From a virus, in the IMG/VR virus record IMGVR_UViG_3300045988_174428: 59,578 nucleotides of DNA. One strand, written 5' to 3'. The notes beneath the pieces are model-generated. The model saw only the letters and a program-made list of their open reading frames with translations, made no database searches and had not been told where the DNA came from. How positions within the stretch are numbered: position 1 is the first letter of the stretch; every line of letters begins with the position of its first letter. Both the position numbers and the translations under genes were made by a program. Positions 214 through 12,207 of this stretch are shown one piece after another.

Positions 214-233
214 CTCTCTTGTTCCTCTCTTCC

Positions 234-593: not shown

Positions 594-616
594 GATGTCC
601 TTATAGGGTCTGGGGG

Positions 617-976: not shown

Positions 977-1791
977 CAGTTCTCCTCCTTCTCGGCGTCC
1001 TCGTCGATCAGCCAGCTGATGGCAGCGTGCATCTCCTCGGAGTCCTCGGGGCTCATCATCGCCTCCGCCGCCCGCTTGATGAAGAACGTGTCGCTGTTCT
1101 TGGAGGACAGCCTGGTCACCATGCACCGTGAGCCGCCGTCCTCCGGGTAGCGCAGGTCGACATCCAGGCTCAGCGCCCGCCCGGAGCGCTCGTTGACGAA
1201 GATCCAGTCCGAAGACGGGTCCTGCTTCACGTCGGCGAAACCCTCCTCCGGCTGGAGGTCGATGTTGCCCACGATGGTCTCGCGGATAAACTGGCGCACA
1301 TTCATGGCGCCCTTGTCGTAGGCGTCGGCGAGCACCGCCCTCAGGTCGTCGTCGACCTCGACGCTGCCCTCGTCGTTGTAGTAGATCTTCCCGTCCTCGC
1401 GCTCGCCCCCGGCCAGGTGGTGGATCATGTCGAGCGCGGTGCCGATGACGTCCCCGGCCAGTTCGCTCATGGCCTCGTCCATCTCCGCCTCGCTGCCGGT
1501 CCACCCGACGCCGGAGCGGGACCAGTCCGACGCCCACCACTGAAGGTCGGGGTCGTGCTCGTCCGCGCCCTCGTCGCGACCCCACTGGAGGTGGATGGTC
1601 TCCTCACTCCAGGCGGTGTCCTCGTTTCCCAGGTCGATGACGAGGCGGGCCGTCCCGTCGTCGCCGGGGATGAGGCGCAGGTCGTGGTCCTCGTCGTCCT
1701 CCTTGCCGGGGAAGTAGACGCTGACTCCGTAGGGCAGCGCCCGATCGAGAGCCTCGGCCAGTTCGTCCCAGTCGTCCATAGTCTTGGCCAT
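976..1791 (-). CDS. hypothetical acidic protein (271 aa)
   Basis: ORF track. AAGGAG lies upstream of the ATG at 1791. Protein-like composition. Confidence 0.75.
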   Translation of the reverse strand: MAKTMDDWDELAEALDRALPYGVSVYFPGKEDDEDHDLRLIPGDDGTARLVIDLGNEDTAWSEETIHLQWGRDEGADEHDPDLQWWASDWSRSGVGWTGSEAEMDEAMSELAGDVIGTALDMIHHLAGGEREDGKIYYNDEGSVEVDDDLRAVLADAYDKGAMNVRQFIRETIVGNIDLQPEEGFADVKQDPSSDWIFVNERSGRALSLDVDLRYPEDGGSRCMVTRLSSKNSDTFFIKRAAEAMMSPEDSEEMHAAISWLIDEDAEKEEN

Positions 1792-1827
1792 GATGTTCTC
1801 TCCTTCTCTTCGTTGGTTTCATGAACC

Positions 1828-1900
1828 GGCCCCCGGGGAGGACTCGAACCTCCCTTTATTCCTCCGCAATAAAGCGCAATAACCTTATTACGGCGGGGGC
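1828..1900 (-). ncRNA. tRNA-like element A (73 nt, full cloverleaf size, non-canonical anticodon arm)
   Basis: Minus strand reads GCCCCCG-CC-GTAA/TAAGGTTA/TTGC-G-CTTTATT/GCGGAGG/AATAAA(G)-GGGAGG/TTCGAGT/CCTCCC-CGGGGGC-C. It has a perfect 7-bp acceptor, a D-arm with GG and a T-loop TTCGAGT. The anticodon-like arm has a 7-bp stem, no U33 and no variable loop. Confidence 0.6.
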
Positions 1901-1911
1901 GCGACTGCTCG

Positions 1912-2313
1912 CTACTTGCGCAGCAGCCGCCTTGCTGTGGCCCCGGAGGCCGTCAGGCCAAGGGAGCCGTAGTGGACCCCATTCCGACGCACGTTGCGTC
2001 CGGGGGTGAGGATGTCGTCGCGTTCGGGGAACAGGTCCTCCGTGGTCTGCTGCACCATGCGCGACACGACCAGGAACGTGTCCTCCCGGTAGGGCGGGAG
2101 GAAGGCGTGCGTGGCCCGCCCCTTGCACGACACGGGGATGCGGGTGATGCCCCGCCAGCCGGGGACGGTGGCGTCAACCTCGGTCATGCCCTCGTCCCGG
2201 TGCCGAACAGTGGGCGAGTTGCCGTCAGGCTGGAGCACCATGATGGTAGTCTCCCTGTCGGCGGGGTCGATGATGCGCAGCGGCCTTCCGGTGAGGTTGA
2301 GGATGCGCGCCAT
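1912..2313 (-). CDS. hypothetical protein (133 aa), paralog family c (N-terminal NLTxxxL motif)
   Basis: ORF track. Resembles 8593..8943 (MARILNLTGRPLRII vs MTTIYRNLTPHALSV, and later PGR..R...G). Confidence 0.7.
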   Translation of the reverse strand: MARILNLTGRPLRIIDPADRETTIMVLQPDGNSPTVRHRDEGMTEVDATVPGWRGITRIPVSCKGRATHAFLPPYREDTFLVVSRMVQQTTEDLFPERDDILTPGRNVRRNGVHYGSLGLTASGATARRLLRK

Positions 2314-2567
2314 CAGTTCTGCTCCTTCTTCGCCTGATACTCCTTGATGAAGTCGGCCAGGGAGTCGAGGTCGTCCTCGAATCGCTTGCGCAGATCGTAG
2401 AACGTCGACCAGCGGATCGGGACCTCCTTGAAAACCCGGTCGAAGAGGACCGGGTCAGATGAGAGATCCTGGTACTGGGGGCCCAGGTTTTCGTGGATGA
2501 ACTTCTGGAGCCAGGCTGCGGCGTAGTACGCCTCGCTCCAGGAGTGCCGGGGCTTGTTGCCGCTCAT
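2313..2567 (-). CDS. hypothetical protein (84 aa), paralog family a
   Basis: ORF 2313..2636 trimmed to M24 (MSGNKPRHSW). ATGA overlap with the upstream stop at 2564. Motif RKRFEDDLDSLADFIKEY. Confidence 0.7.
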   Translation of the reverse strand: MSGNKPRHSWSEAYYAAAWLQKFIHENLGPQYQDLSSDPVLFDRVFKEVPIRWSTFYDLRKRFEDDLDSLADFIKEYQAKKEQN

Positions 2568-2785
2568 GCGTGCTCCCCGACGTCCTTGGGCTCGGGCCCA
2601 TCGTTCGTGACCATCACGGGCCGCCCGGCCTCCCACTCCTCATCCGTCTTCCCCGCCCTGTACTTCTCGATGAAGTTGATCAGGCCGTCGGGGTCGTCGA
2701 CGAACTGCCGCCTCAGGCGGTAGCAGATATACCAGCGCACCCGGTGCATCTCGAAGACGGCCTCGAAGCCGCCGTTCTCGCTCAT
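2564..2785 (-). CDS. hypothetical protein (73 aa), paralog family a
   Basis: ORF track. Motif RRQFVDDPDGLINFIEKY. 4-nt overlaps with both neighbours. Confidence 0.7.
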   Translation of the reverse strand: MSENGGFEAVFEMHRVRWYICYRLRRQFVDDPDGLINFIEKYRAGKTDEEWEAGRPVMVTNDGPEPKDVGEHA

Positions 2786-3579
2786 CGGTCCTCCTCCTCC
2801 TCACTGCGCCCGCCGCTGACGGCGGCATTGATGAGGCCCGTCATGGCGCAGAACGGGTACGACACGCCCCGCGAGCCCATCGTGATGTCGACATCCCCCA
2901 GGTTCGTCCCCTCCCGTGTGGACAGGGCGACCTCGGCCCTGCCCCGGTCGGTGCGGATCTTGATGACCCGCTCCGGCAGGTTGATGTTGCTCATCCCGAG
3001 GGCGGGGAACACCGCCACCGTGAAGGGGACCTCCTCCAGCAGGAGGTAGTCGACCATGGTGGTCAGCGCCCGGCGGGCCAGGGTCTTGTCGGCCCGCTCC
3101 TGCACGTATTCGGTGAACTCGCCCATGTTCTTCGCCTCGCAGGCGTAGTCGCAGAAGTCGGCGATGATGGACTCGTCCCACTCGAAGTAGTCCCCCGTGG
3201 TCCACGCACCGGGCAGGTGCTGGCGGACCTGGTCGGCGGCCCGCTTCTCGATGACTCCGGCGACCTGCTTGGGGGTGACGTCGGTCAGGGTGCGCCCGTC
3301 GGTTCCGGGCTCGTCGACGAGGAGGTTGAAGCAGGGTTCGTACTCCCACTTCTCCTTCTTCTCCGCGCCCGTCGGAACCCGGGGGTAGTGGTACAGGGAG
3401 GCGATGTGCTCCTCCTTCTGGTTCCACCACGAGGTGAAGATGTCGACATCGCCGGGGTCGGCCAGCGGGTAGGCCGACACGAACCCGTCCCGGCCGAGGA
3501 GTCCGGGCAGTCGGTCCTTCACCTCGGCCCAGAACTCGGCCATGTCCTCGTCCATTTCGATCCTGTCGTCAGCCGACAT
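2782..3579 (-). CDS. hypothetical acidic protein (265 aa)
   Basis: ORF track. GC3-rich frame. Overlaps its neighbours by 4 and 11 nt. Confidence 0.75.
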   Translation of the reverse strand: MSADDRIEMDEDMAEFWAEVKDRLPGLLGRDGFVSAYPLADPGDVDIFTSWWNQKEEHIASLYHYPRVPTGAEKKEKWEYEPCFNLLVDEPGTDGRTLTDVTPKQVAGVIEKRAADQVRQHLPGAWTTGDYFEWDESIIADFCDYACEAKNMGEFTEYVQERADKTLARRALTTMVDYLLLEEVPFTVAVFPALGMSNINLPERVIKIRTDRGRAEVALSTREGTNLGDVDITMGSRGVSYPFCAMTGLINAAVSGGRSEEEEDR

Positions 3580-4312
3580 GGTTCTCCTTCCTCTCCTTCT
3601 TGTTCTTCTCGATCCTGTTGTTCAGGAACAGGGCGGCCCGCTCGCGAACCTCCTGAACCTCCGGGATCCCGTAGGCCAGGTGGTAGTGCAGCCCGTATCC
3701 GTCCCGGTCCAGGAGATTGACGTCGATCAGGCCGTCGTCGTCGGGTGCGACGGCGATCTCGACACTCCCGTGCCCGCCGGTGAGGTACCGGATCATGTTC
3801 GGCGTGCTCTCCTTGGTCACCCGGAGGGGGATGTCGTTGTCCAAGTCCGTGGCGAAGTCGCCGACCCAGCACCATGCCGCGAACCGGCGCACCTCGTCCC
3901 GGTACTCGCGCAGGTCCGTGGTATTCACGTCCAGGCTCTCCGTCATGTTGTCCGACTCCCAGCACAGCCCGTCGTAGTCGTCCCAGACCAGCGGGACGTC
4001 CCCGACGAGGACGTTCAGGGCCGAGTGGTACACGGCCAGGGCGATGTTGCGGGCGTATCCCGACTCGTAAGGAATGGGGTCCATGGGCTCGCCCTTCAGT
4101 GTGACGAAGAACGAGCTGCCCACGCCGATGTCGTCGTCCGTGCTGATGACGCCGAGCACCTTGTCTCCGCCGACACCGTGCAGGGTGACGACTCCCGTGT
4201 TCAGGTCCAGGCGCAGCATTCGTATCACGGCCTCCGTCGGGATGTTCGACAGGACCTGCATCCAGATCCGGGTGCGCTCGTCGAAGGTCTCCCAGGTGAT
4301 CTCCTCGATCAT
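3569..4312 (-). CDS. hypothetical protein (247 aa)
   Basis: ORF 3569..4738 trimmed to M143 (MIEEITWETF). ATGA overlap with the stop of 4309..4626. The upstream part of the ORF is shadow. Confidence 0.7.
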   Translation of the reverse strand: MIEEITWETFDERTRIWMQVLSNIPTEAVIRMLRLDLNTGVVTLHGVGGDKVLGVISTDDDIGVGSSFFVTLKGEPMDPIPYESGYARNIALAVYHSALNVLVGDVPLVWDDYDGLCWESDNMTESLDVNTTDLREYRDEVRRFAAWCWVGDFATDLDNDIPLRVTKESTPNMIRYLTGGHGSVEIAVAPDDDGLIDVNLLDRDGYGLHYHLAYGIPEVQEVRERAALFLNNRIEKNKKERKENHVG

Positions 4313-4626
4313 ACGTTCCTCTCCTTCTCCGCCCGCTCTCGCCGGTCCCGGATCACCTCGTGCAGGACCAGGAAGTTGGCTAGCGCCGCGATCACCTGGT
4401 CCTCCCGCGCGCTGCCGCGCTTGAACGTGATTCTCCGGCCCTTGTCGTCGGCGTCGTGGTGCACCGAGGCGATGCTGTTCTCCCCAACCGGGGCCAGATA
4501 GATGACCGCGTGCGCTCCCCCGGACCCGGGGATCTCGATAAGGGCGTAGGTCTGCTGTCCTCCCGTGACTCTGGCCGAGGGTGTGTCCCTGGTGATCCCG
4601 GCGACGATCTGCTGAAGTGTTCTCAT
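4309..4626 (-). CDS. hypothetical protein (105 aa)
   Basis: ORF 4309..4710 trimmed to M29 (MRTLQQIVAG). AAGGAG lies 5 nt upstream of the ATG. Confidence 0.7.
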   Translation of the reverse strand: MRTLQQIVAGITRDTPSARVTGGQQTYALIEIPGSGGAHAVIYLAPVGENSIASVHHDADDKGRRITFKRGSAREDQVIAALANFLVLHEVIRDRRERAEKERNV

Positions 4627-4675
4627 TCTCCTTCTCTCTCTCTCTTCCTTCAATCGGTTCCTGTTTTGGAACCCG

Positions 4676-4771
4676 TGCCGGGCGGGGGAGTCGAACCCCC
4701 GGAGATTCACGTCCGCAGTACGGCCCGTACCGACCCATAAACGCGACGCCGTTCCCGATCCCGTCCCCGGC
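4676..4771 (-). ncRNA. tRNA-like element B (96 nt composite; T-arm plus acceptor closing a structured insert)
   Basis: Minus strand reads GCCGGG(G)...CGGGGG/TTCGACT/CCCCCG-CCCGGC-A, a 6+6 bp coaxial helix. The insert contains the hairpin CGGTACG-GGC-CGTACTG. No canonical D or anticodon arm. Confidence 0.5.
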
Positions 4772-4786
4772 TGTTAACGTGCGGGG

Positions 4787-5176
4787 CTACCACACGTAGA
4801 TCGACACGCCCCGGCCGCTTCCCGGGATCGGGTTCGCGCACCGGGCGCAGTCCGACTCCCCGGCCACGTCGGCCCTCCCGAGTTCGGCCGGCCTCACCTC
4901 CCGTTCGCAGCTACGGCACAGGGGTCCGTAGGGCTGCTGAGCCGAGCGCGAATCCAGGTACACGTATCCGCCATCCATGAGGGCGTTCAGGACGGACATC
5001 CACTGTCCACAATCCCGGAGCCACCCACTCACCTCGTCCTCGTCCACGGCGAGGCGCCTCAGGATGCCCCGGACGTCCTCCCCGGTCACGATCCGCTCCC
5101 GCCACGGCCAGTCGCATCGGCGCGTGTTCAGCATCTTGACCACGACACGGGCCAGGGCCTTCTCGTTACCACACAT
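4787..5176 (-). CDS. hypothetical Cys-rich (zinc-ribbon-like) protein, paralog family b, C-terminus IYVW
   Basis: ORF track. Shares GY.YL...YGPLC...C..C...IYVW with 5166..5615. The start could instead be the internal MLNTRR. Confidence 0.65.
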   Translation of the reverse strand: MCGNEKALARVVVKMLNTRRCDWPWRERIVTGEDVRGILRRLAVDEDEVSGWLRDCGQWMSVLNALMDGGYVYLDSRSAQQPYGPLCRSCEREVRPAELGRADVAGESDCARCANPIPGSGRGVSIYVW

Positions 5177-5615
5177 AGATGGTCACCTTGTCCGTGGCAC
5201 CGGCCGCCATGCGGCGGCAGTCGACACAGACGGCGCCCACCCAGGACGGGTCGGGAACCTTCCCGACCTTTCGGGCCTGGTACTTGTAGCGCGCCTCATG
5301 CTGAGGGCACAGCGGCCCGTAGTGGCGGTTCCCGTCGTCGGTCCAGTTCTGGGGCAGGACGACATAGCCCTCCCCGTTCAGGGCCGCTTCGAGGAAGCCC
5401 CGGAGCACGGGCTCGGCGAGCGGATCCCTCCCATCGTAGGGCTTCCTACCGAGCAGGTCGTTGGCCAGGCGGCGCAGACCCTCCCACGTGAGGACATAGT
5501 CGGCCCAGCTGGGCGCCGGGTTCCACTCGGGCGAGGCGTCCGCCTCCAGGGCCTCGACGATGCGCTCGATGAGCTCGTCGGTGTCGGTCTTGGCCTCGTT
5601 CTCGTTTTCGTTCAT
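5166..5615 (-). CDS. hypothetical Cys-rich protein, paralog family b, C-terminus IYVW
   Basis: ORF track. Tandem paralog of 4787..5176 with an 11-nt overlap. Confidence 0.7.
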   Translation of the reverse strand: MNENENEAKTDTDELIERIVEALEADASPEWNPAPSWADYVLTWEGLRRLANDLLGRKPYDGRDPLAEPVLRGFLEAALNGEGYVVLPQNWTDDGNRHYGPLCPQHEARYKYQARKVGKVPDPSWVGAVCVDCRRMAAGATDKVTIYVW

Positions 5616-5652
5616 GAATGCTTCCTCTTCTCGTTGGGTTGGTTGTTGCTGT

Positions 5653-6312
5653 TCAGACCTCGAACCGGAGGAACGACACGGCCGGGGCGATGACGTCCTC
5701 GTCCCGCATGACGCCGTAGTCCACTCCCGCGACCGTGCGCCCCGCTTCTCCGTACTTCCCGCCGCGTAGGAGGATCGAGGCCATGGGCTCGTCGCCGTGG
5801 ATCACCACGGTGCGATCCTTGCGACGCACTGTGATCCCTTCGGGCTCCCAGACGGCCGTCAAGGACTGCCTCTTGAGCGCCTCGCGCAGGGCGTCGGCGA
5901 GGACGGCCCGGTACTTGAACCCCGTGATGTGGGTTGCGTACAGGGCCAGGTCCGCGACGTCCTCGAACCGGGTCAGAGCCGCCCATGCCTCCCCCGTCGG
6001 GGCCCACTGAATGTTCTTCCCCGCGTCGTCAAGTTCCAGAGGCGGTGCGACGGGCAGTGGAAGGCCTTCCAGGACCTTCTCGAATGCTGCGTCGGTGAGA
6101 AGGCGGGCCACCGTCTCCGTAGTGCCCCCGCCCAGGCACACCGGCGGACGCTGTCGTCTCATGACGATGCGGTTCCGCTCGACATCGGCCAGGATTGTCG
6201 CCACTCGTCCCCGGCGCAAGAACACGCCGTTCTGGCACACTCCGATGCTGTCCCGGAAGGGCCGGGGGAGGCGGGCGAGGACCTCGTCCCACAGTCGCTT
6301 CTCCTCGGTCAC
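5653..6312 (-). CDS. hypothetical protein (219 aa)
   Basis: ORF track. GC3-rich frame. Confidence 0.7.
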   Translation of the reverse strand: MTEEKRLWDEVLARLPRPFRDSIGVCQNGVFLRRGRVATILADVERNRIVMRRQRPPVCLGGGTTETVARLLTDAAFEKVLEGLPLPVAPPLELDDAGKNIQWAPTGEAWAALTRFEDVADLALYATHITGFKYRAVLADALREALKRQSLTAVWEPEGITVRRKDRTVVIHGDEPMASILLRGGKYGEAGRTVAGVDYGVMRDEDVIAPAVSFLRFEV

Positions 6313-6614
6313 TCAGAGGTCCTCCTCTCCTTCAGGACGGTGTACATATACATTCGGATCTCACCGTCCAGGTCATCGTTCGCGGTGAAGACCCCGTCGG
6401 CCTGGGACCGGAAGGTGTTCCAGACCGCGTCGAGGTTCTCCCGGCTCATCGGAAACGCCGCGAGCCGGATGATTTGGACCGGACGGATCCGCTTGTCCAT
6501 GCTGTCGTCCTCGAAGACGAACCGCAGGGCGTTGCGGGCCTCTCCCAGGTTTCCTGCGAGCAGGGCTCCCCGGACGAGCCGGGCCTGTTCGTTCAGCCAA
6601 GTGGTCAGATTCAT
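6309..6614 (-). CDS. hypothetical protein (101 aa)
   Basis: ORF track. 4-nt overlap with the downstream gene. GAGAGGAAG lies upstream of the ATG. Confidence 0.7.
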   Translation of the reverse strand: MNLTTWLNEQARLVRGALLAGNLGEARNALRFVFEDDSMDKRIRPVQIIRLAAFPMSRENLDAVWNTFRSQADGVFTANDDLDGEIRMYMYTVLKERRTSE

Positions 6615-6645
6615 GGTGATGCTTCCTCTCTTCCGTGTTGCATCG

Positions 6646-6697
6646 CGCTCCCGGCGGGGCTCGAACCCGCTGCGCGGCCTTAAAGGGCGACAGGAGC
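6646..6697 (-). ncRNA. tRNA top-half mimic C (52 nt)
   Basis: Minus strand reads GCTCCTG-(20 nt linker containing GCC/CTTTAA/GGC)-GCGGG/TTCGAGC/CCCGC-CGGGAGC-G, followed by CGAT. The acceptor is 7 bp (one G-U) and the T-stem 5 bp, giving 12 bp. Confidence 0.6.
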
Positions 6698-6743
6698 GGC
6701 CGGGCGGGGCGTAACAGAAGTTCGTCCCGCGCCGGCCCGGTTC

Positions 6744-7358
6744 TCAGTTGGCCTCGATAATGGCACCGTAGAAGCGCAGGGCCCCGGTGAAGTCCTCCTC
6801 GTTGAAGAGGGTCGGGTTCCAGCGCCAGGAACCCACCTGGCCCTCCACGTACTCCGAGTCCCAGCTGCCGCTGTGGGGCGTCCCGTCCGGACCCCAGACG
6901 AAGCTCACGGCGTCGCCCTGCACTGCGCCGTCGGGCGCGGGGAGGGTGAAGACGACCTGGAGGCTCCCGTCATCCCAGGGGTAGAAGTCGACACGGGCGT
7001 CGGTGGCAATGGTCTTGCCGCGCAGCCATTCCCAGTAACCGCTGGCCGCCACGGCGTTCGTCTTGAGCGGTCGCAGCACGTCGTCGACAACGCCGTCCTC
7101 AGCCGCCAGGGCCGCCTCATAGTCGCACACGGCCTCCGAGCCTTCATAGTGGTAGCCGCCCTTGGGCGTCCCGTCCGCGGTCCACATGTAGGTGAGAAAC
7201 GAGATATCGGCGGGGCAGTCCCCATTGGCCAGGTCGACGACGACGGTGGCCCCGCCGTCGGGCTCGGCATAGATCACGGTCCGTCCCGCAATGGCCGGGT
7301 CGAGGAACCACGGCTCCGTGACGGCAACCGCGGGCGGGGTAGTGGTATCGGCGTTCAT
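6744..7358 (-). CDS. hypothetical protein (204 aa) with two internal repeats, paralog family d
   Basis: ORF track. Repeats SF.TYMWTADGTPKGG and SFVWGPDGTPHSG resemble 7467..7748. Confidence 0.7.
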   Translation of the reverse strand: MNADTTTPPAVAVTEPWFLDPAIAGRTVIYAEPDGGATVVVDLANGDCPADISFLTYMWTADGTPKGGYHYEGSEAVCDYEAALAAEDGVVDDVLRPLKTNAVAASGYWEWLRGKTIATDARVDFYPWDDGSLQVVFTLPAPDGAVQGDAVSFVWGPDGTPHSGSWDSEYVEGQVGSWRWNPTLFNEEDFTGALRFYGAIIEAN

Positions 7359-7398
7359 AATGATCCTCTTCTCTCTTCCCTATTTGTTCGAGGGATCG

Positions 7399-7441
7399 CG
7401 CCCGGGGGAGGAGTCGAACCTCCCCTTAAGACCATCCGGGC
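7399..7441 (-). ncRNA. tRNA top-half mimic E (43 nt)
   Basis: Minus strand reads ACA-GCCCGGA-TGGTCTTAAGG-GGAGG/TTCGACT/CCTCC-CCCGGGC-G-CGAT. It can be read as a 7-bp inner plus 5-bp outer helix (12 bp). Near-identical architecture to G, with compensatory stem changes. Confidence 0.65.
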
Positions 7442-7466
7442 TGTTATGAGGCGCTCACGCTCACAC

Positions 7467-7748
7467 TCACATGTATCCCGCGAGCGTCTGTGCGAGCGCG
7501 TCCTCATTGAGGAGGGTCAGGTTCCGGCTGTAGTAATCCGGCTGCCCGATCGCCTCCTCCTCCATCGTGCCTTCCACGGGACGCCCGTCGGCGTCCCACG
7601 TGAAAGAGGCGTACAACGAGTACCATCCGCTCTGGATATCCTTCCAGACCGCCTTCATACTCCCGTCATTCATAATCCGGAACTCATCGGGGAACGGGAG
7701 CGAGAGATTCCGCTCCCGCCACGCCTCGAATCCGGCCTTCGCACTCAT
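7467..7748 (-). CDS. hypothetical protein (93 aa), paralog family d
   Basis: ORF track. SFTWDADGRPVEG motif. Confidence 0.7.
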   Translation of the reverse strand: MSAKAGFEAWRERNLSLPFPDEFRIMNDGSMKAVWKDIQSGWYSLYASFTWDADGRPVEGTMEEEAIGQPDYYSRNLTLLNEDALAQTLAGYM

Positions 7749-7766
7749 TATAGCTTCCTCTCTCTC

Positions 7767-8051
7767 TCAGCGAGCGGCCCGACGGGCGCGATGGTCCCGC
7801 ATGGCCTTGTACTCGTTCAGGAACGGGCGGACCCAGTACCTAAGGTTCGGCAGCGGGTCCCAGTCCCCGGTCCTGCGTCCCCTACGGGCGGCCTGGAACA
7901 GGATATCCCCGGCCGCCTTGAAGTCTTCGTCAATCTTCAAGCGGTACAGCCAAAGGCCGTACTCGCCGATGGCCCTGCGTCCGAACTTGACGGCATCGTC
8001 CAGGTAGTCATTCGTGACCCGCACGATCCACTCCCGAGTTCCCGCGTCCAT
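7767..8051 (-). CDS. hypothetical protein (94 aa)
   Basis: ORF 7767..8504 trimmed to M152 (MDAGTREWIV). GAAAGGAAGAG lies upstream. The remaining N-terminal part is Pro/Arg shadow. Confidence 0.65.
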   Translation of the reverse strand: MDAGTREWIVRVTNDYLDDAVKFGRRAIGEYGLWLYRLKIDEDFKAAGDILFQAARRGRRTGDWDPLPNLRYWVRPFLNEYKAMRDHRARRAAR

Positions 8052-8090
8052 TGTCTCTTCCTTTCGGTTGTGTGCCGCTTCGCGGCATCG

Positions 8091-8135
8091 CGCCCCGGGC
8101 CCGCGGCGAACGGGCGATGGTTCTCCCTCCGGGGC
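8091..8135 (-). ncRNA. tRNA top-half mimic D (45 nt)
   Basis: Minus strand reads GCCCCGG-AGGGAGAACCATC-GCCCG/TTCGCCG/CGGGC-CCGGGGC-G-CGAT. Perfect 7+5 bp. Flanked 5' by a GAAA-tetraloop hairpin and 3' by the hairpin TGCCGC-GAAG-GCGGCA. Confidence 0.6.
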
Positions 8136-8193
8136 TGCCGTAGCGGACTTTCGTCCCGCCGCGGCTCGATTTTGCGGGCTGTTGTCGTTGTTG

Positions 8194-8553
8194 TCAGCCG
8201 CGTCCGCCGCGCCAGATGACGTAGGAGGTCCCGGTGCGGTTGCCTTGGGTGTTCGCGTCCCAGTAGCAGCCGTCGAAGGCGGCGGGGATCGCATCGTCGC
8301 CGTCCTCATCGGTGAGGCACTGCGCGACGGGCACCCACGCGCAGTCCTGGGCTCCCGCCGTGGACGTCTCGAAGCACCGGGGCGCCAAGTGGGTGGGTTC
8401 AGTCCCGGCCGGGGCGGCCGTCGTGACGACGGCGGGAGCCGGCTGGTTGGTCGGGGCGGGCTCCCCCGACGCGATAAGGGCGATGATGCCGGTGCCCAGC
8501 GCACCGGCGAAAACGATTGCCGCCGCGGTCGGAACGGCGTCAGGGATGTTCAT
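8194..8553 (-). CDS. membrane-anchored or secreted Cys-containing protein (119 aa)
   Basis: ORF track. N-terminal hydrophobic helix AAAIVFAGALGTGIIALIA, then a Pro/Thr linker and 4 Cys. Confidence 0.7.
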   Translation of the reverse strand: MNIPDAVPTAAAIVFAGALGTGIIALIASGEPAPTNQPAPAVVTTAAPAGTEPTHLAPRCFETSTAGAQDCAWVPVAQCLTDEDGDDAIPAAFDGCYWDANTQGNRTGTSYVIWRGGRG

Positions 8554-8592
8554 TTGGATTCTCTCTCTCTTCGATTGGTGGGTGGGTGCTTA

Positions 8593-8943
8593 TCAGGCGC
8601 GGCGGGTGAGCCCGTCGCAGCCGATCACCCTGCCCTCCGCGTCCCGGAGCAGGCGCCCGGGACTCATCAGATCGCCGCGTCCGGCCGGGGCAGCGTCGGC
8701 GACCGCCTTGGCGACGATGAGGATGACGTCCTCCTCGGGCTCGGGGAGACCAACGATCTCCCGCGGCGAGCCGGCCACCGAGATGGCGATCTCATGGCCG
8801 TTCAGGGTTGCCTGCTCCGGAGGGAACCGGTCATACACGACGCGGGCGGCGCCCCGGGAGTCCGGCGGGATGACGACGGTGGCCCCACCCAGCGCCTTGA
8901 CGCTCAGCGCGTGGGGCGTGAGGTTACGGTAGATCGTGGTCAT
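8593..8943 (-). CDS. hypothetical protein (116 aa), paralog family c
   Basis: ORF 8593..9372 trimmed to M144 (MTTIYRNLTPH). GAGAAGAG-rich leader. Confidence 0.7.
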   Translation of the reverse strand: MTTIYRNLTPHALSVKALGGATVVIPPDSRGAARVVYDRFPPEQATLNGHEIAISVAGSPREIVGLPEPEEDVILIVAKAVADAAPAGRGDLMSPGRLLRDAEGRVIGCDGLTRRA

Positions 8944-8966
8944 GGTTCTCTTCTCTCTTCTCGTTG

Positions 8967-9025
8967 CCGTATTGTTGCGGAGCGCCGATCTTTCAGGCGC
9001 ATCCCCGCTTACGCGGGGTATACGG
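8967..9025 (-). ncRNA. three-way-junction RNA structure with GNRA loop (intergenic)
   Basis: Minus strand reads CCGTAT-A-[CCCCGC GTAA GCGGGG]-AT-[GCGCC TGAAAGATC GGCGC]-TCCGCAACA-ATACGG. All stems are perfect. Confidence 0.45.
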
Positions 9026-9043
9026 ATTGGGGTGACGGTCGGT

Positions 9044-9451
9044 TCAGCCGACCACGATGGGCGCCCTGCGCAGGTCGCGCAGAGTCTTCTCGGCCTTGGC
9101 CGCCGCGGCGTCGTCGCCGTGCTCCCAGGCCTCACGACGCGCCTCGTGCGCGTCCAGAGCGACGCGGGCGTTGTCATAGTCCGCGGGGAAGAAGATTCCG
9201 CGGAAGATCCTAATGAGAGCCTCGTGGTCGTTCGTGTAAACGACGCGGTCATCGTTGGTGACGATTCGGCACGTGTCATCCCCCAGGAACTCAGCGATGC
9301 GGATACCGCGGAAAAAGATGTTCCCGGAGCGGGACAGCTCGACGAACTGCCCGATGGAGTCGGGCAGGACACTCCTGAGCCACTCCTGCCGCTTACGGGC
9401 CCGCTCGCGAGTCACGGCGAAGTGGGAGTGAGGGTGACGGTCGGTGTTCAT
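9044..9451 (-). CDS. hypothetical protein (135 aa)
   Basis: ORF 9044..9484 trimmed to M12 (MNTDRHPH). GAAGGGAAG lies upstream. Confidence 0.65.
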   Translation of the reverse strand: MNTDRHPHSHFAVTRERARKRQEWLRSVLPDSIGQFVELSRSGNIFFRGIRIAEFLGDDTCRIVTNDDRVVYTNDHEALIRIFRGIFFPADYDNARVALDAHEARREAWEHGDDAAAAKAEKTLRDLRRAPIVVG

Positions 9452-9500
9452 TTTCGGCTTCCCTTCGGATGGGTGGGTGAACAATGATGGGCCGGATTAG

Positions 9501-9552
9501 AGCCCGGGCGCGGGATCGAACCGCGCTACTGCCTCCGCTTTAGCGGCCGGGC
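9501..9552 (-). ncRNA. tRNA top-half mimic F (52 nt)
   Basis: Minus strand reads ACA-GCCCGG-[CCGC TAAA GCGG]-AGGCAGTA-GCGCGG/TTCGATC/CCGCGC-CCGGGC-T. The helix is 6+6 bp. Confidence 0.6.
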
Positions 9553-9564
9553 TGTTTTCGGGGC

Positions 9565-10221
9565 TCAGTAGGCCCAGACGTGGGCGCGCCCGTCGTCGGG
9601 CGAGTCGAAGAGATCGCGGTCGCAGCACTCGCAGACGCCGTCCGTGTTCTCGGCCTCGATCACGCCGTAGCGCATCCGCAGCCGTGGGGCGAGCGGGGCG
9701 CGCTCAGCGGCGCGGACATCGCAGTCCACGGCGTCCAGCGCGGCGGCGTAGTCGTCGTCCTCGGGCCGTTCCGCGTCGGACAGATAGGCCGAGCACTCAC
9801 CGCAGAGGACCACGATCTCTTCCGCCCGCGTGTCATAGGGCAGGACCACGTACTCCTGCATATCGGCCCACGGGGAGTGCTCCTGAAGACGGTGTTCCGC
9901 GTCCGTGGCGGCACTCCAGACGTACTCCGGATCGACGGCGGACCCCGCGGCGCGCAGGGCGCCCGACGCGGCAAGTGCGACGGCGCAGGCGCCGCCCGTG
10001 ATGATGCGGCTGTCCAGTGCCCGGTCACCGATCTGCCTCAGGAGCAGCGCCGCGGCCTTCGCGGCGGCGTCGGGAGTGGACTGCTCCTGGGCGCGGTAGA
10101 AATCGATAATGACGTCCAGCGGCAGGTCGTCGGCGCTCACCGGGATCGCGTCCCGGTAGCGCCCGTCGGAGTACTCCGCCTGATAGGCGGGCACGGTAAA
10201 GCTGACGGTCGTGGTGTTCAT
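9565..10221 (-). CDS. hypothetical Cys-containing acidic protein (218 aa)
   Basis: ORF track. CGEC and CECC motifs. GAAGGGAAAAC lies upstream of the ATG. Confidence 0.7.
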   Translation of the reverse strand: MNTTTVSFTVPAYQAEYSDGRYRDAIPVSADDLPLDVIIDFYRAQEQSTPDAAAKAAALLLRQIGDRALDSRIITGGACAVALAASGALRAAGSAVDPEYVWSAATDAEHRLQEHSPWADMQEYVVLPYDTRAEEIVVLCGECSAYLSDAERPEDDDYAAALDAVDCDVRAAERAPLAPRLRMRYGVIEAENTDGVCECCDRDLFDSPDDGRAHVWAY

Positions 10222-10275
10222 TGTTGTTTTCCCTTCAGTTGTGAGGGTGGGTGAATGGTGGGGATGATTATGGGC

Positions 10276-10359
10276 GCCGGGTATCCTTTTGACAGGATGG
10301 TCTCGTCATCGTGCGGATGACCGGGGTAGGTCTGAGCTACCTGCTTCCTTTTACCCGGC
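10276..10359. ncRNA. cloverleaf-shaped four-way junction (84 nt) inside the 580-nt ORF-free region
   Basis: Closing stem GCCGGGTA/TACCCGGC (10276-10283 with 10352-10359) encloses three perfect hairpins: 10283-10298, 10305-10321 and 10325-10341. There is no T-loop consensus, and the strand cannot be decided from stems alone. Confidence 0.4.
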
Positions 10360-10801
10360 CGTATGCTTTGTCTTATGTCCGTTATATTTCACACCGAAAA
10401 TCATTTCGGTTCGTCCCGGCCGACGGAAATCGTCGTCCCGCTTCGTGGCGGGGCGCGATGCGTCGTCGGCTTGGCGGGGCCGTCCTCATGACCTTATGGC
10501 ACGGACTGCAACTGGCCTACCGGCCGCTCGGCCCCGTTTTTAACCGTCTATTGCACGGGGCCGAATATTCAGTTCTCAATCTTCCCGGGGTACTAGGTCG
10601 GTTCAGGTGGGGTTCCCGTTCCTTCCTATCCCTTTGTGATGACTCTAGTCTAGCGCGCCCGCTGGGGAATGTCTACTCTTAAATCTGTGTTCTGCGTCTC
10701 TTTTAGGTTTGCGGTTCAAACTCGGGAGTGACGGCCGCCGGATGGCGGAGTCGACAGAAGCGAAGTCATTCCGGCGCACTAGCACTATTGAGTTGTCATC
10801 G

Positions 10802-10844
10802 CGCCCGGGGAGGGAATCGAACCCTCCCTTGAGACCGTCCGGGC
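10802..10844 (-). ncRNA. tRNA top-half mimic G (43 nt)
   Basis: Minus strand reads ACA-GCCCGGA-CGGTCTCAAGG-GAGGG/TTCGATT/CCCTC-CCCGGGC-G-CGAT. It starts 18 nt after the TAG of 10862..11197. Confidence 0.65.
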
Positions 10845-10861
10845 TGTAGGGGCGGGGCGGC

Positions 10862-11197
10862 CTACCACTCATAGACCGGCCGGGCCGGGGCGGCGGCCTT
10901 GAGCGCGGCCCACAGCTCATCGGCCCTCACGCCCAGCTCCTCGAGGACGTAGTGGGGCAGCGAGTCGACCACGGCAGTCAGGAGATGCCCCTCATGCGCC
11001 GGGCCGTCGCACTCATCGCGCAGGGCCTGGATCAGGTGCGCCGCATCCCCGTAGGGGTCGACGCGGGGCAGGCGCCTGTAGAGCGTGCGGTAGGCCGCGG
11101 AGTGCGTGAACAGAGTGCTGTAGCGGCAGATGATCTCCATCCGCAGGGCCCGCGCGGCGGGCGTGAGGGCCGGGGCGGGAGCAGGGCGGGAGTACAT
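10862..11197 (-). CDS. hypothetical protein (111 aa), first gene of the leftward unit
   Basis: ORF track. GAGAGGAACC lies upstream of the ATG at 11197. A promoter-like hexamer pair lies about 45 nt upstream. Confidence 0.6.
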   Translation of the reverse strand: MYSRPAPAPALTPAARALRMEIICRYSTLFTHSAAYRTLYRRLPRVDPYGDAAHLIQALRDECDGPAHEGHLLTAVVDSLPHYVLEELGVRADELWAALKAAAPARPVYEW

Positions 11198-11241
11198 GGT
11201 CGGTTCCTCTCGGTCGGTGGCGTTCCTTGCTGACGGGTATA

Positions 11242-11270
11242 AATGTACTCCTGGGGCGAGTAGGAGTCAA
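11242..11270 (-). promoter_or_regulatory. candidate leftward (early) promoter: -35 TTGACT, 17-nt spacer, -10 TACATT
   Basis: Minus strand reads TTGACT (11270-11265) - CCTACTCGCCCCAGGAG - TACATT (11247-11242). The spacer carries one copy of the GAGTAGG/CCTACTC motif. Confidence 0.5.
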
Positions 11271-11373
11271 GGTCGAAGGGGAGGACGATAGGGTGAGGTA
11301 GGACACATTTCGGTTTGCGTTTCAAAGCGGGGAACGGTGGGAATTGCGACGCGGGAGAGGACGATGCTCGCCA

Positions 11374-11387
11374 GTTTCACGTGAAAC
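11374..11387. promoter_or_regulatory. 14-bp perfect palindrome GTTTCACGTGAAAC, copy 1 (operator-like)
   Basis: Read directly. Flanked by CTCGC..(palindrome)..GTGAGTAGG, the same context as copy 2. Confidence 0.6.
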
Positions 11388-11462
11388 AAGTGAGTAGGGA
11401 AGGATTGGCTCGCTCGCACGGCATCGCCATGAGCGCCGGCGGCGGAGCGAAGCGGAGACGAG

Positions 11463-11626
11463 CGAGCGGAGCGAGAGAGTCAGCCCGGGCGCATGTCGAA
11501 TCCTCTCTCTGTTGCCGGGGATTGTCCTCGCATGTTTCACGTGAAACTGGCGAGTAGGAAAACGGTGGGGATGACGGAGCGGGGATTCGACATGCGCTTG
11601 GCTGCCTTGCTTCCTCGCTCCGCTCG
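11463..11626. repeat. nested long inverted repeat (13-bp outer and 15-bp inner arms) centred on palindrome copy 2
   Basis: CGAGCGGAGCGAG (11463-11475) pairs with CTCGCTCCGCTCG (11614-11626). GCGCATGTCGAATCC (11489-11503) pairs with GGATTCGACATGCGC (11583-11597). Confidence 0.8.
11534..11547. promoter_or_regulatory. 14-bp perfect palindrome GTTTCACGTGAAAC, copy 2 (operator-like)
   Basis: Read directly. Lies at the apex of the nested inverted repeat and is followed by GCGAGTAGG (11550-11558). Confidence 0.6.
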
Positions 11627-12069
11627 GTCGCGCGTCTCGCCAGCGCGTGATGCGGAGCACATAGAAGCGGGGATGCATATGGGTTGGCTGGGATCAAGGG
11701 ACGAAAGTCCCGAAACCTCCTTCGGGTTAAGGCGAAAGTTTCGGCTACCCGAAACATACTATGCGTGACATAGGTATGTGTGGGGGAGTATTACGCCAGA
11801 CGTATCATCCTCGGGGAGGAGGAATGTGATGGAGAAGACAGACCTCGGAGGGTTGACAGGATTGCGGAGGCATGCTATGGGAAATGTGTGGAAGGTCATA
11901 GGGGATGAGGGTTGAAGATAACGCTGTTATGTGCATGTGTGAGTAGCAAACACGCGTGAGGGTGGGTTGGGAGTATGGAAAAGTCGTCCCAAAAATAGTG
12001 AAGTTCGGGTAAATGTGATCTGTGACATATGCATAAATATACGGTTGAGTGCATATTGGATGATCTTCG

Positions 12070-12147
12070 TGATAGATGATGATGATGATGATGATGATAG
12101 ATGATGATGAATGATAGATGATGATGAATGATAGATGATAGACGATG
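12070..12147. repeat. GAT-rich tandem array with 17-bp units TGATAGATGATGATGAA (iteron-like)
   Basis: Units start at 12070, 12095, 12112 and 12129. The two middle units are identical. This is the most A+T-rich stretch of the window. Confidence 0.85.
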
Positions 12148-12207
12148 ACTATATTTGGTAAATGATAGTCTTTAATCCTGCGTTTACTATTCTCTATCGG
12201 GAGCCAA

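Follow-up and report, generated by a model that had tools for sequence, protein, structure and literature searches.

Candidate tRNA acceptor/T-arm mimics in the early operon of an actinobacteriophage and in its relatives

Judged from its sequence, the early operon of the actinobacterial phage studied here has seven short RNA modules, each reproducing just the acceptor/T-arm half of a tRNA. Comparative searches place these modules in a large and apparently undescribed family that is predicted in many actinobacteriophages, the model phages L5 and D29 included; we found no prior description of this minihelix family in the literature. The family probably recruits host tRNA-processing enzymes. Our preferred explanation, which we hold with evenly balanced confidence, is that its members are mimics of the tRNA elbow and acceptor that would mature through RNase P cleavage, trimming of the 3' side and CCA addition.

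Structure and placement of the seven elements

The window analyzed is the whole 59,578-nt stretch of IMG/VR virus record IMGVR_UViG_3300045988_174428. All seven elements located there by the initial annotation are present (Table 1), each in an intergenic gap of the early operon and on the transcribed strand. They lie 11–58 nt downstream of a stop codon, and the next start codon lies ∼30–50 nt downstream of A–F; G is the exception and is followed by a ∼580-nt non-coding stretch. The flanking early genes are orphans, with Pfam matches for 0 of 20.

Table 1. Elements A–G and two adjacent hairpins, with family-model scores
Feature	Position	Strand	Acceptor stem or hairpin	Linker or inner domain	T arm	Score	Basis
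A	1828..1900	-	GCCCCCG/CGGGGGC (7 bp)	AU-rich; one 12-bp hairpin, or D-like plus anticodon-like arms	GGGAGG-UUCGAGU-CCUCCC		
B	4676..4771	-	GCCGGG/CCCGGC	64-nt insertion	CGGGGG-UUCGACU-CCCCCG	23.8 bits, E = 6e-4	sequence, T-arm scan
C	6646..6697	-	GCUCCUG/CGGGAGC (one U·G pair)	20 nt, weak hairpin	GCGGG-UUCGAGC-CCCGC	8.9 bits only	sequence, T-arm scan, fold
D (atypical)	8091..8135	-	GCCCCGG/CCGGGGC	13 nt	GCCCG-UUCGCCG-CGGGC	15.5 bits only, E = 0.08	sequence, fold
E	7399..7441	-	GCCCG(G)/(C)CGGGC	GAUGGUCUUAA	GGGGAGG-UUCGACU-CCUCCCC	69.8 bits, E = 1e-15	sequence, T-arm scan, fold
F	9501..9552	-	GCCCGG/CCGGGC	small hairpin CCGC-UAAA-GCGG; linker AGGCAGUA	GCGCGG-UUCGAUC-CCGCGC	20.2 bits, E = 0.005	sequence, T-arm scan, fold
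G	10802..10844	-	GCCCG(G)/(C)CGGGC	11 nt, GACGGUCUCAA, YGGU inside	GGGAGGG-UUCGAUU-CCCUCCC	65.8 bits, E = 1e-14	sequence, T-arm scan, fold
Hairpin directly 3' of B	4656..4673	-	GGUUCC-AAAACA-GGAACC				sequence
Hairpin directly 3' of D	8074..8086	-	GCCGC-GAA-GCGGC				sequence, fold

A tRNA-type T-loop had been assigned to all seven. Six of them (A, B, C, E, F and G) do have a canonical UUCGANN loop, closed by a G-C pair, on a GC stem of 5–7 bp that stacks on an acceptor-like stem, whereas the loop of D is UUCGCCG and lacks A58. A search for UUCRANN loops with closing stems of 4 bp or more returned eight sites, all on the minus strand, with these six elements lying within 1836–10828; the sites at ∼35.2 and ∼40.2 kb are weak and were not accepted as members. 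The sequence GGTTCGANNCC occurs seven times in the window, against 1.07 occurrences expected, and six of the seven belong to these elements. When the T arm must also stack directly on an acceptor stem of 5 bp or more, six structures are observed compared with 0.61 per shuffle of the whole window (both strands), and with 0.0025 expected in the 1557 nt of intergenic gaps of the arm (2000 shuffles). Their occurrence is non-random.

Folded alone, A, C, E, F and G adopt the proposed stacked helices. D also forms a stack, although its stem has 6 bp and its loop 5 nt, and B forms its acceptor stem but not its T arm. With flanking sequence included, an alternative upstream 5' strand can pair in E and G; the comparative data favor the proximal GCCCGG/CCGGGC pairing. 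The stack measures 13 bp in A and 12 bp in each of the other six elements, in line with the annotated count of six out of seven. Twelve base pairs, the length annotated for real tRNAs, is the mode and not a rule, since the stack is 11 bp in the copy of E in the relative L002 and in the L171 copy. C–G had been described as entirely devoid of further arms, but there is a short third hairpin in F and a weaker one in C. Smaller details were borne out: the paired stem changes between E and G (GGGGAGG/CCUCCCC versus GGGAGGG/CCCUCCC), ACA before B, E, F and G, G-CGAU after C, D, E and G (the G being the discriminator in E and G), and the lack of an encoded CCA in all seven.

Orthologues were found for C (L002, L103), D (L002), E (L001/L002) and F (L002, L016, L103). 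The L002 acceptor of C reads GCUCCCG, which converts the U·G pair to C-G. In the L002 counterpart of D the stem-loop and the acceptor 3' strand are identical, with a few differences in the 5' part and linker; lacking A58 and scoring low with the model, D is best classed from its sequence as an atypical seventh member. The L002 copy of A keeps the acceptor and T arm but has an unrelated 16-nt hairpin as its inner domain, and the L103 orthologue of B (8857–8897) is a plain 41-nt minihelix with no insertion. These two comparisons indicate that the inner domain is dispensable or replaceable.

Covariation and breadth of the family

A single sequence pattern matched 52 IMG/VR loci, most of which contain the minihelix, and isolated Gordonia, Mycobacterium and Streptomyces phages, as well as an oral phage, carry it unannotated. 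Many genomes have 2–7 copies. The relative L169 has nine tandem minihelices in ∼850 nt with no ORFs between them, and L146 has three copies that run up to the contig end.

In an alignment of 29 sequences, 97.1% of cells pair; compensatory changes occur at five of the six T-stem pairs, and G53-C61 does not vary. For 55 model hits the corresponding figures are 97.2% of cells and compensatory changes in 11 of 12 pairs, values reached by 0 of 500 shuffles, although this alignment was fitted to the model's structure and its counts lean towards that structure. On the sense strand G·U outnumbers A·C by nine to one, which supports RNA made in that orientation. Of 84 copies, 66 are intergenic and sense to both neighbors, and a further eight are sense but lie inside ORF calls whose starts we judge to be over-extended.

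Every copy has G53-C61, and the T-loop is UUCGA in most copies and UGCAA in one subgroup. Of the 29 sequences, 18 have A and nine have G as discriminator, and the next base is C in all 29; ACCA is encoded in three family members. YGGU is retained, either within the linker or in the form of a loop on a 4-bp mini D-hairpin that covaries. We infer that YGGU or the short hairpin probably stands in for G18-G19 of the D-loop, completing the tRNA elbow.

Covariation, an invariant T-loop, sense orientation and broad phylogenetic distribution together argue strongly for a family of acceptor/T-arm mimics, and they uphold the earlier view that these are not tRNA genes, attP sites or ordinary terminators. 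ARAGORN detected no tRNA gene or tmRNA in the window, and the Rfam search returned no tRNA gene and no Y-RNA match. A reached 28.3 bits against the Rfam tRNA-Sec model, under the gathering score of 47, with a fold z of -4.2.

Because A still looks like a whole tRNA, the elements might be decayed tRNA genes; they might also be selfish repeats, or module-boundary sequences that promote recombination. Gene content beside the conserved elements does vary between the window and its relative, with one gene missing after D, an extra gene before C and a different gene upstream of F. We nevertheless regard such DNA-level or neutral origins as very improbable, given that pairing is kept by compensatory changes despite sequence divergence, that sense-strand G·U pairs are commoner than A·C and that most copies are sense to their neighbors. 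Homologous recombination would also find poor substrates in the seven copies of this one genome, whose sequences differ.

A tRNA-shaped relative at the 3' end of Pleft RNA

In Cluster A mycobacteriophages, RNAalifold predicts a related four-way cloverleaf in which 14 of 33 pairs show compensatory changes; this element maps to 51,135–51,226 in L5 and to 47,981–48,084 in D29. Unlike the minihelices of the window, it is ∼100 nt long and has a D arm and a long middle arm. The 88–89 gap of L5 additionally contains a minihelix of the window's family, which scores 28.7 bits with the family model.

The Pleft non-coding RNA of L5, D29 and StarStuff is abundant, stable and essential (Dedrick et al. 2017, PMC5712189). 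In L5, ∼90% of Pleft transcripts end at 51,140–51,190, and deletion of 51,195–51,407 is not tolerated (PMC5712189); D29 shows a "sharp peak immediately upstream of gene 89" (bioRxiv 10.1101/2025.11.21.689395). The position of the cloverleaf coincides with the published RNA-seq/Northern 3' end and with this sharp peak. The 3' end region of the L5 RNA coincides with a covarying tRNA-shaped element akin to those of the window, a likeness mentioned neither in PMC5712189 nor in the 2025 D29 preprint.

The L5 3' end was read by its authors as termination (PMC5712189), and a second hairpin lies just downstream of it; both points count against processing. The elements could, more generally, be end-forming or stabilizing hairpins that act independently of tRNA enzymes, as U-less terminators, attenuators or roadblocks to 3'-to-5' exonucleases, with the T-loop merely inherited as part of a very stable fold. 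Such a role would suit GC-rich stacked helices placed immediately after stop codons, the extra hairpins beside several elements and the transcript ends at the L5 relative. It is improbable, however. U-tailed terminators were rejected because no U-run follows the elements, and terminator-like sites are no commoner than in shuffles (10 against 7.5). A simple roadblock leaves unexplained the near-invariant T-loop and G53-C61, YGGU, the purine discriminator followed by C, and a stack of ∼12 bp maintained across very different stem sequences.

Candidate processing and roles of the small RNAs

The modules belong to the polycistronic early transcript and display the features measured by tRNA-maturation enzymes; host enzymes would on that account process them. 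RNase P would cut on the 5' side of +1, the 3' side would be trimmed back to the discriminator or C74, and the CCA-adding enzyme would finish the 3' end. The operon RNA would in this way be divided into units with defined and protected ends, and stable mini-tRNA-like RNAs of 40–100 nt would be set free.

Synthetic acceptor/T-arm minihelices are laboratory model substrates of RNase P, the CCA-adding enzyme, synthetases and EF-Tu. The phage elements share their architecture and ∼12-bp coaxial stack, so that recognition by these enzymes is to be expected, and differ in being natural and conserved and in having the YGGU linker. Three features count against processing. Position -1 is A in nearly all copies, whereas bacterial RNase P prefers U; acceptor stems are often 5–6 bp rather than 7 bp; and D is conserved though it has no proper T-loop.

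In mascRNA (MALAT1), the MEN-beta tRNA-like element and the MHV68 TMER tRNA-like units, RNase P or RNase Z cuts at a tRNA-like fold embedded in a longer transcript; the upstream RNA gains its 3' end in this way, and a small tRNA-like RNA with a CCA tail is released. Those systems are eukaryotic or herpesviral, occur as full cloverleaf-like single copies and have no sequence relationship to the phage elements. Closer in layout are mitochondrial tRNA punctuation and the plant mitochondrial t-elements, RNase P/RNase Z signals (Forner et al. 2007, PMC1920247) in which acceptor/T-arm structures between or beside coding regions create mRNA 5' and 3' ends. Cleavage has been shown for these organellar elements, whereas in the bacteriophage operons it is predicted; the phage modules also differ in their minimal size of only 41–52 nt and in having up to seven dispersed or nine tandem copies. 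The tRNA-like domain of tmRNA similarly sets an acceptor stem on a T arm, with a reduced D-loop analogue and no anticodon arm. It is one large split module, whereas the phage elements are many small closed ones with no G3:U70 alanine identity pair, tag reading frame or pseudoknots.

The YrlA tRNA-like module of Mycobacterium smegmatis lacks an anticodon arm but combines a T arm and an acceptor stem with a mimic of the D arm; in vivo, RNase P cleaves it and CCA is added (Chen et al. 2014, PMC4201824). Judging by the primer sequence in PMC4201824, the D arm of YrlA is similar to the D-loop GGAAUG found in the Cluster A element. YrlA and the L5 Pleft 3' ends lend indirect support to processing or 3'-end formation at such elements. 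YrlA is nevertheless circularly permuted (T, acceptor, D), is a Ro60-binding module and adjoins rsr, while the phage elements follow the normal tRNA order with no Ro module, rsr neighbor or Rfam match.

The nine tandem copies of L169 exceed what punctuation needs and suggest that the small RNA itself matters and not the cut alone. Released mini-tRNA-like RNAs could, at high copy, be decoys or sponges that occupy host factors working on the acceptor ends or elbows of tRNA, such as defense toxins (MenT/AbiEii nucleotidyltransferases or toxSAS/CapRel enzymes); titration of RNase P or the CCA-adding enzyme during host takeover is another possibility. The tandem and multiple copies and the setting among early orphan genes fit this proposal. 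The L5 region with two tRNA-like elements is stable and highly abundant, and both M. smegmatis and E. coli are sensitive to its toxicity (PMC5712189); tRNA acceptor stems are the reported target of mycobacterial MenT toxins (PMC7450476 and PMC10435456). We consider a decoy role rather unlikely: no toxin has been tied to these RNAs, and a decoy does not need the regular placement between stop codon and start. Since it too requires tRNA-type processing, it extends the preferred explanation more than it competes with it.

The placement of six of the seven elements shortly upstream of a start codon could instead point to cis-acting translational or ribosome-recruiting elements, the tRNA elbow being a known ribosome-contact surface (PMC4810234). 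Y-RNA-like modules that bind a host Ro60/Rsr-PNPase complex are a further candidate, and GACGAA(A)G in hairpins beside C and D resembles the Y-RNA motif GNCGAAN0-1G (a match in two of four copies). Either role seems highly unlikely to us, because arrays with no downstream ORFs do not suit a translational enhancer, the arms are not permuted as in YrlA, Rfam gave no Y-RNA match and a TROVE domain was found in 0 of 30 proteins scanned. The small hairpin directly 3' of D may cap the 5' end of the downstream mRNA; its site in L002 holds a different hairpin (GCCGUG...CACGGC), and the hairpin 3' of B is kept in L002 with a changed loop.

Elements of the early arm and their neighbours

The window is a tailed-phage genome of ~67% GC in which minus-strand genes extend from ~11,200 to 1 and onward from 59,578 to ~44,000, with the structural genes on the plus strand. 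The 59,578–~44,000 arm carries replication genes (DNA polymerase A, DUF3987, AAA_24 and a P22 antirepressor domain), and Pfam revealed no tRNA-related enzyme in those of its proteins that were scanned. About 20 small genes occupy the first 11 kb of the leftward arm, and none of 20 early-arm proteins has a Pfam match. By endolysin comparison, the nearest relative among isolated phages is Caudovirus D_HF2_7 from saliva (34% identity), and megablast of window 1-12,000 against isolated phages gave no nucleotide-level match.

The initial annotation described seven elements in this arm, A–G, in which a T arm with a tRNA-type loop stacks on an acceptor-like stem. Scans, shuffles and folds agree that these elements are real. 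A scan for UUCRANN loops closed by at least 4 bp gave six strong sites in the window, corresponding to A, B, C, E, F and G, each of them intergenic, minus-strand and between 1836 and 10828. Two further weak minus-strand sites, at ~35.2 and ~40.2 kb, are not members. The sequence GGTTCGANNCC occurs seven times in the window versus 1.07 expected. A T arm with a stacked acceptor of at least 5 bp was observed six times, compared with 0.61 per whole-window shuffle (both strands) and with 0.0025 in shuffles of the arm's 1557 nt of intergenic sequence (2000 shuffles). Shuffled intergenic sequence, which had been proposed as a control, does not reproduce the elements.

On their own, the elements fold into the proposed stacked helices, except that B fails to form its T arm and D becomes a 6-bp stem with a 5-nt loop. 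Also confirmed were the compensatory stem changes that distinguish E from G, the flanking ACA and G-CGAU, and the lack of an encoded CCA. Other parts of the description need adjustment. The combined stack is 12 bp in six of the seven elements and 13 bp in A, and this length is a mode rather than a rule, with 11 bp in two relatives. The loop of D is UUCGCCG, with C at position 58 in place of A58, and was detected only by a looser loop pattern; D is a weak member, yet it is conserved. The claim that the short elements have no additional arms has to be relaxed for F, which contains a short extra hairpin, and more weakly for C. For E and G, minimum-free-energy folds that include flanks gave another acceptor pairing, further upstream, which was rejected because the flanks vary over 29 relatives and GCCCGG/CCGGGC stays paired. 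This acceptor covaries, and is GCCGGG/CCCGGC in L103, one of the compared loci.

The elements begin 11-25 nt after a stop codon, or 46-58 nt where an extra hairpin intervenes. The next start lies ~30-50 nt further on, a gap that includes the ribosome-binding site; the exception is G, which is followed by ~580 nt of non-coding sequence. Small hairpins lie just 3' of B and D, at what would be new 5' ends, and are retained despite sequence change in a close relative, the IMG/VR contig IMGVR_UViG_3300045988_174334 (L001/L002). In this contig F, D, E, C, B and A follow one another as they do in the window, and G would fall beyond its start. Comparison of window 6600-9600 with L002 600-3600 reveals whole-gene gains, losses and replacements beside conserved elements: the gene after D is missing in L002, which has an extra gene before C and a different gene upstream of F. 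An integron-like or cassette-boundary reading was rejected, as these gains and losses are not bounded by elements on both sides. In the L002 copy of A, the acceptor and T arm are kept and the AU-rich inner domain is swapped for an unrelated 16-nt hairpin, so that this inner domain is not a conserved anticodon arm. The L103 counterpart of B is a plain 41-nt minihelix, and the 64-nt stretch in window B is therefore a linker insertion.

Two genes have a member of a second hairpin family (GAGCCGnGGCGGGACGAA...) after their stop codons, immediately 5' of D and C, and the family is also present in L002. It is a separate module, because in L002 an inserted gene lies between C and one copy. In two of four copies the GACGAA(A)G core of these hairpins fits the Y-RNA Ro-binding motif GNCGAAN0-1G.

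Features of the window and of compared sequences, with scores of the covariance model R1
Feature	Sequence	Coordinates	Strand	R1 score (bits)	E-value	Remark
A	window	1828-1900	minus	15.5	0.075	
B	window	4676-4771	minus	23.8	6e-4	
C	window	6646-6697	minus	8.9	3.7	
D	window	8091-8135	minus	15.5	0.076	T arm 8099-8115
E	window	7399-7441	minus	69.8	1e-15	training-set member
F	window	9501-9552	minus	20.2	5e-3	
G	window	10802-10844	minus	65.8	1e-14	training-set member
Gene after D	window	7767-8051				missing in L002
GAGCCGnGGCGGGACGAA hairpin, 5' of D	window	8137-8165	minus			
GAGCCGnGGCGGGACGAA hairpin, 5' of C	window	6698-6743	minus			
GAGCCGnGGCGGGACGAA hairpins	L002	~1987-2016; ~3117-3165				
Terminator call at F	window	9505-9489	minus			5-bp hairpin
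Non-coding stretch	window	10222-10800	minus			directly downstream of G
Promoter-like site	window	10675-10647	minus			
28-nt palindromes	window	11367-11394; 11527-11554				160 nt apart
Flanking inverted repeats	window	11459-11630				
33-nt tandem repeats	window	12208-12273; 12059-12151 (together with the adjacent GATGAT/ATGATAGATGATGATGA run)				
GGGGGTGTCGAAC... repeat	window	13456-13484; 13607-13635	plus			
Promoter TTGACA-16-TATAAT	window	13645-13672				perfect
Rejected model match	window	56,503-56,532				inside long ORF
Cloverleaf	phage L5, NC_001335 (L293)	51,135-51,226				
Cloverleaf	phage D29, NC_001900 (L294)	47,981-48,084				
Cloverleaf	L292	969-1039				
Minihelix with mini D-hairpin	phage L5	~50,420-50,476				28.7 bits; 88-89 gap
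UGCAAUU variant	L138	1703-1758				
Minihelix array	L169	3400-4250	minus			~850 nt

The tRNA-detector and Rfam check named in the initial annotation gave no tRNA-gene or tmRNA call. ARAGORN reported 0 tRNA and 0 tmRNA genes in the window, and Rfam 15 gave 0 matches at gathering scores. In E-value mode A alone of the seven was matched, as tRNA-Sec at 28.3 bits versus a cut-off of 47, and B–G were unmatched even at E up to 10. Six of the seven elements have the T arm of a canonical tRNA (UUCRANN, G53-C61), D being the exception, and the acceptor-on-T stack and discriminator are of tRNA type. The elements are not canonical tRNA genes: the detectors recognise no full cloverleaf in them, an anticodon arm (7-nt loop, U33) is missing from C, D, E, F and G, and the candidate anticodon loop of A, GCGGAGG, has C at position 33.

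Several other classes were rejected. A tmRNA is contradicted by a third acceptor pair that is C-G or U-A, not G3:U70, and by the lack of an internal ORF, in line with ARAGORN. An attP site or tRNA 3' fragment does not account for seven copies with both acceptor strands and with stems that covary rather than match a single host tRNA. A YrlA-type Y RNA was discarded because the arms are in normal tRNA order and Rfam gave no match; YrlA differs in its permuted order (T arm, acceptor hairpin, D arm) and its Ro module. The GACGAA motif is confined to separate hairpins adjoining the elements, in two of four copies, and no TROVE domain was found in 30 minus-strand proteins scanned. Translational or Y-RNA-like roles are very improbable readings. 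The stacks do not resemble intrinsic terminators either, as no T-arm/acceptor stack was called as a minus-strand terminator. Terminator calls overlap the elements twice, as a hairpin running from the 3' end of F into its flank and as a plus-strand call over the T arm of A, and terminator-like sites number 10 versus 7.5 in shuffles. We consider it improbable that the elements serve as enzyme-independent terminators or roadblocks. Their placement, sense and between cistrons, is that of t-elements and mascRNA-class RNAs, in which a tRNA-like fold lies at cistron boundaries.

The wider family and its covariation

The pattern AGCCCGGAYGGUC-N8-14-UUCGA retrieved 52 IMG/VR loci, most with a minihelix; in a few, no stem encloses the loop and the match is due to chance. 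The minihelix consensus is A / GCCCGG / AYGGUCGYAG / CGGGGG UUCGACU CCCCCG / CCGGGC / A C G A. Across 29 distinct sequences, 97.1% of cells pair, five of six T-stem pairs have changes on both sides, and G53-C61 is invariant (29/29, and 49/49 in a second count of family members); in slid-register controls on the 29 sequences pairing falls to 37-59%. Among family stems G·U exceeds A·C by 9 to 1, which fits an RNA on the sense strand. That the elements are DNA-level or neutral repeats appears most unlikely. The discriminator, which lies outside the search pattern, is A in 18, G in 9 and U in 2 of the 29 sequences (purine in 27) and is followed by C in all 29. Three family members encode ACCA.

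A covariance model of the family and a search of relatives had also been proposed; these were carried out and covariation was found. The model, R1, was built from the 29-sequence set, of which E and G are part, and outside the seven elements it gave no other credible match in the window; a match with the look of an acceptor-only hairpin, inside a long ORF, was judged to be chance. Across 51 loci R1 gave 78 matches, often 2-4 per locus and on a single strand within each locus. In an alignment of 55 hits, fitted to the R1 structure so that its counts lean towards that structure, 11 of 12 pairs have compensatory changes and 97.2% of cells pair, a level reached by 0 of 500 shuffles. According to a crude gene caller, 66 of 84 copies are intergenic and sense to both neighbours, and eight are sense within ORF calls whose starts were judged over-extended; the rest are antisense (4), between neighbours on both strands (4) or without a called neighbour (2).

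The family includes variants with a mini D-hairpin, consisting of a 4-bp covarying stem (GCCU/AGGC, GCUA/UAGC, GCGA/UCGC, GUCU/AGAC) and a YGGU loop, of which the short type retains only A-YGGU-C. In tRNA, D-loop G18-G19 pairs with Psi55 and C56 to form the elbow, and we infer that YGGU stands in for G18-G19. In five loci (L124, L129, L138, L148, L151) the T-loop UUCGAUU is replaced by UGCAAUU, with G at position 55, and the G-C closing pair and stacked acceptor stem are retained. Tandem copies occur in L146, L169 and L170; the L169 array comprises nine minihelices of three sequence types with no ORFs. Each L169 minihelix has CAUGGAGAAC...GGUA before it and ACGC and GGC-rich spacers after it, and the array looks like a tRNA gene array made of top halves only.

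Two broader searches were less specific. The loose pattern CAGCCCGGN{8,38}GGTTCGA matched mostly real tRNA genes through their D-loops and incidentally yielded the loci L016, L027, L059, L103 and L109. A scan of genome contigs with GCCCGGAYGGTCN{8,14}TTCGA gave at least 120 matches. Among those listed, two had a stem of at least 5 pairs round the loop; neither had the acceptor 3' strand, and they were set aside as chance.

BLAST of the consensus against isolated phages located the element, unannotated, in Gordonia phages Cafasso, Aleemily, ObLaDi, Morgana and MakoManhole, in Cluster A-type mycobacteriophages HINdeR, SWU2, MyraDee, Sheen, Odin and Superchunk, and in Mycobacterium phage Indlulamithi, Streptomyces phage Dagobah and the oral phage D_HF2_7. 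The HINdeR copy is flanked by gp83 and gp82, and that of D_HF2_7 occupies the 87 nt that separate two early genes. L5 also has a minihelix, one with a mini D-hairpin.

The Cluster A cloverleaf and the Pleft RNA

A larger, covarying tRNA-shaped element of ~70-105 nt is found just upstream of gene 89 in L5, D29 and relatives (L292–L304). RNAalifold independently predicts a four-way cloverleaf from ten Cluster A phages, with a 6-bp acceptor stem, an extended D arm with the loop GGAAUG, a long and variable middle arm that in several phages is capped by a GCAA tetraloop, and a T arm whose loop is UUCGAUU and which directly abuts the acceptor stem. Compensatory changes occur in 14 of 33 pairs. HINdeR and Twister share these acceptor, D and T arms, with a much shorter middle domain, and the HINdeR acceptor covaries (GGGCAG/CUGCCC versus GGGUAG/CUACCC). 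The Cluster A elements were not called by ARAGORN or by Rfam 15 at E up to 1.

In L5, Pleft transcription starts at 51,672 and ~90% of transcripts end at 51,140-51,190, giving a very abundant, stable RNA of ~500 nt (Dedrick et al. 2017, PMC5712189). Deletions of 51,195-51,619 and 51,195-51,407 could not be recovered, 51,407-51,619 is deletable, and the Pleft RNA region is toxic in E. coli and M. smegmatis (PMC5712189). In D29, a sharp peak immediately upstream of gene 89 has been equated with this essential RNA (2025 preprint, bioRxiv 10.1101/2025.11.21.689395). The mapped element agrees in position with the published end and peak, and the 3' end of the Pleft RNA and the D29 peak thus coincide with the tRNA-shaped element. 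The non-deletable L5 segment takes out the 5' acceptor strand and D arm of the cloverleaf. The term 'tRNA-like' is absent from the text of PMC5712189, as is 'tRNA' from that of the D29 preprint. For the Pleft RNA of L5 and D29, which is abundant, essential and toxic, these observations offer an identity that is concrete and open to test: the relevant region folds as a tRNA.

Proposed processing of the early RNA, and further repeats of the window

Conserved among the elements are the acceptor/T-arm stack, the T-loop, a substitute for the D-loop, and a purine at the discriminator position with C74 after it; the anticodon domain is lacking, varies or can be replaced. The conserved parts are those that tRNA-maturation enzymes read, and the spacing of the window elements fits punctuation. 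Functionally, the elements are closest to mitochondrial tRNA punctuation, plant t-elements, mascRNA and TMER-type signals, and in architecture to the tRNA-like domains of tmRNA and YrlA and to laboratory minihelices. The M. smegmatis YrlA tRNA-like module, which has no anticodon arm, is cleaved by RNase P in vitro and was found in vivo cut at the RNase P site and extended to CCA (PMC4201824). This precedent, from the same host genus, and the L5 transcript ends at the related element (PMC5712189) are indirect evidence for ends made by RNase P and by RNase Z or trimming, with CCA addition.

The best explanation of these findings, to which we give about an even chance, is that RNase P would process the elements within the early polycistronic RNA, that the 3' side would be trimmed and CCA added, and that this processing would cut the RNA and release stable mini-tRNA-like RNAs. 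Against such processing, position -1 is A and not U, acceptor stems are often only 5-6 bp, and D is conserved without having the T-loop. The released RNAs might also act in trans as decoys or sponges for acceptor-end enzymes, as the tandem arrays, abundance and toxicity suggest; we regard this as rather unlikely, and it would extend the processing explanation, not exclude it. A joint reading, equally doubtful, is that actinobacteriophages carry unrecognised non-decoding tRNA mimics, from 41-nt minihelices to 100-nt cloverleaves, which would be the functional core of the abundant, essential, toxic early non-coding RNA of the L5/D29 type, would hijack tRNA maturation for operon processing and, as CCA-tailed acceptor-end decoys, might counter tRNA-targeting immunity of the host or a prophage, such as MenT/AbiE and toxSAS/CapRel.

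No description of the elements was found in full-text searches of the openly accessible literature. We regard them as tRNA-like processing or mimicry elements that are unusually widespread, have gone unannotated and connect directly with an essential phage RNA of unexplained role. Processing of the tRNA kind would mean that a bacterial virus uses the 'tRNA punctuation' known from mitochondria and eukaryotic long non-coding RNAs. U-tailed terminators are scarce in high-GC Actinobacteria, where such processing would be a simple, portable way of dividing polycistronic RNA and of producing stable ends or small RNAs. Hundreds of sequenced actinobacteriophages, some relevant to therapy, carry the family without annotation, and a covariance model could annotate it immediately.

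The window contains further repeats. The non-coding stretch downstream of G includes a promoter-like site and a repeat of UUUGAAACGCAAACC-like sequence that recurs near 11330, and its position recalls the long non-coding leader RNA of L5 and D29. On the plus strand, a GGGGGTGTCGAAC... repeat lies upstream of a perfect promoter; its first copy can fold into a hairpin with a loosely T-loop-like UGUCGAA loop, which is not a family member by the covariance model. Two 33-nt tandem repeats each carry a promoter-like TTGTGA-16-TATAAT/TATATT and adjoin a GATGAT/ATGATAGATGATGATGA repeat run in a low-GC (56%) segment. The divergent control region, which gave spurious plant-miRNA matches in Rfam, contains two copies of a 28-nt palindrome (CTCGCCAGTTTCACGTGAAAC...GAG) flanked by further inverted repeats, and these palindromes are probably repressor operator sites.
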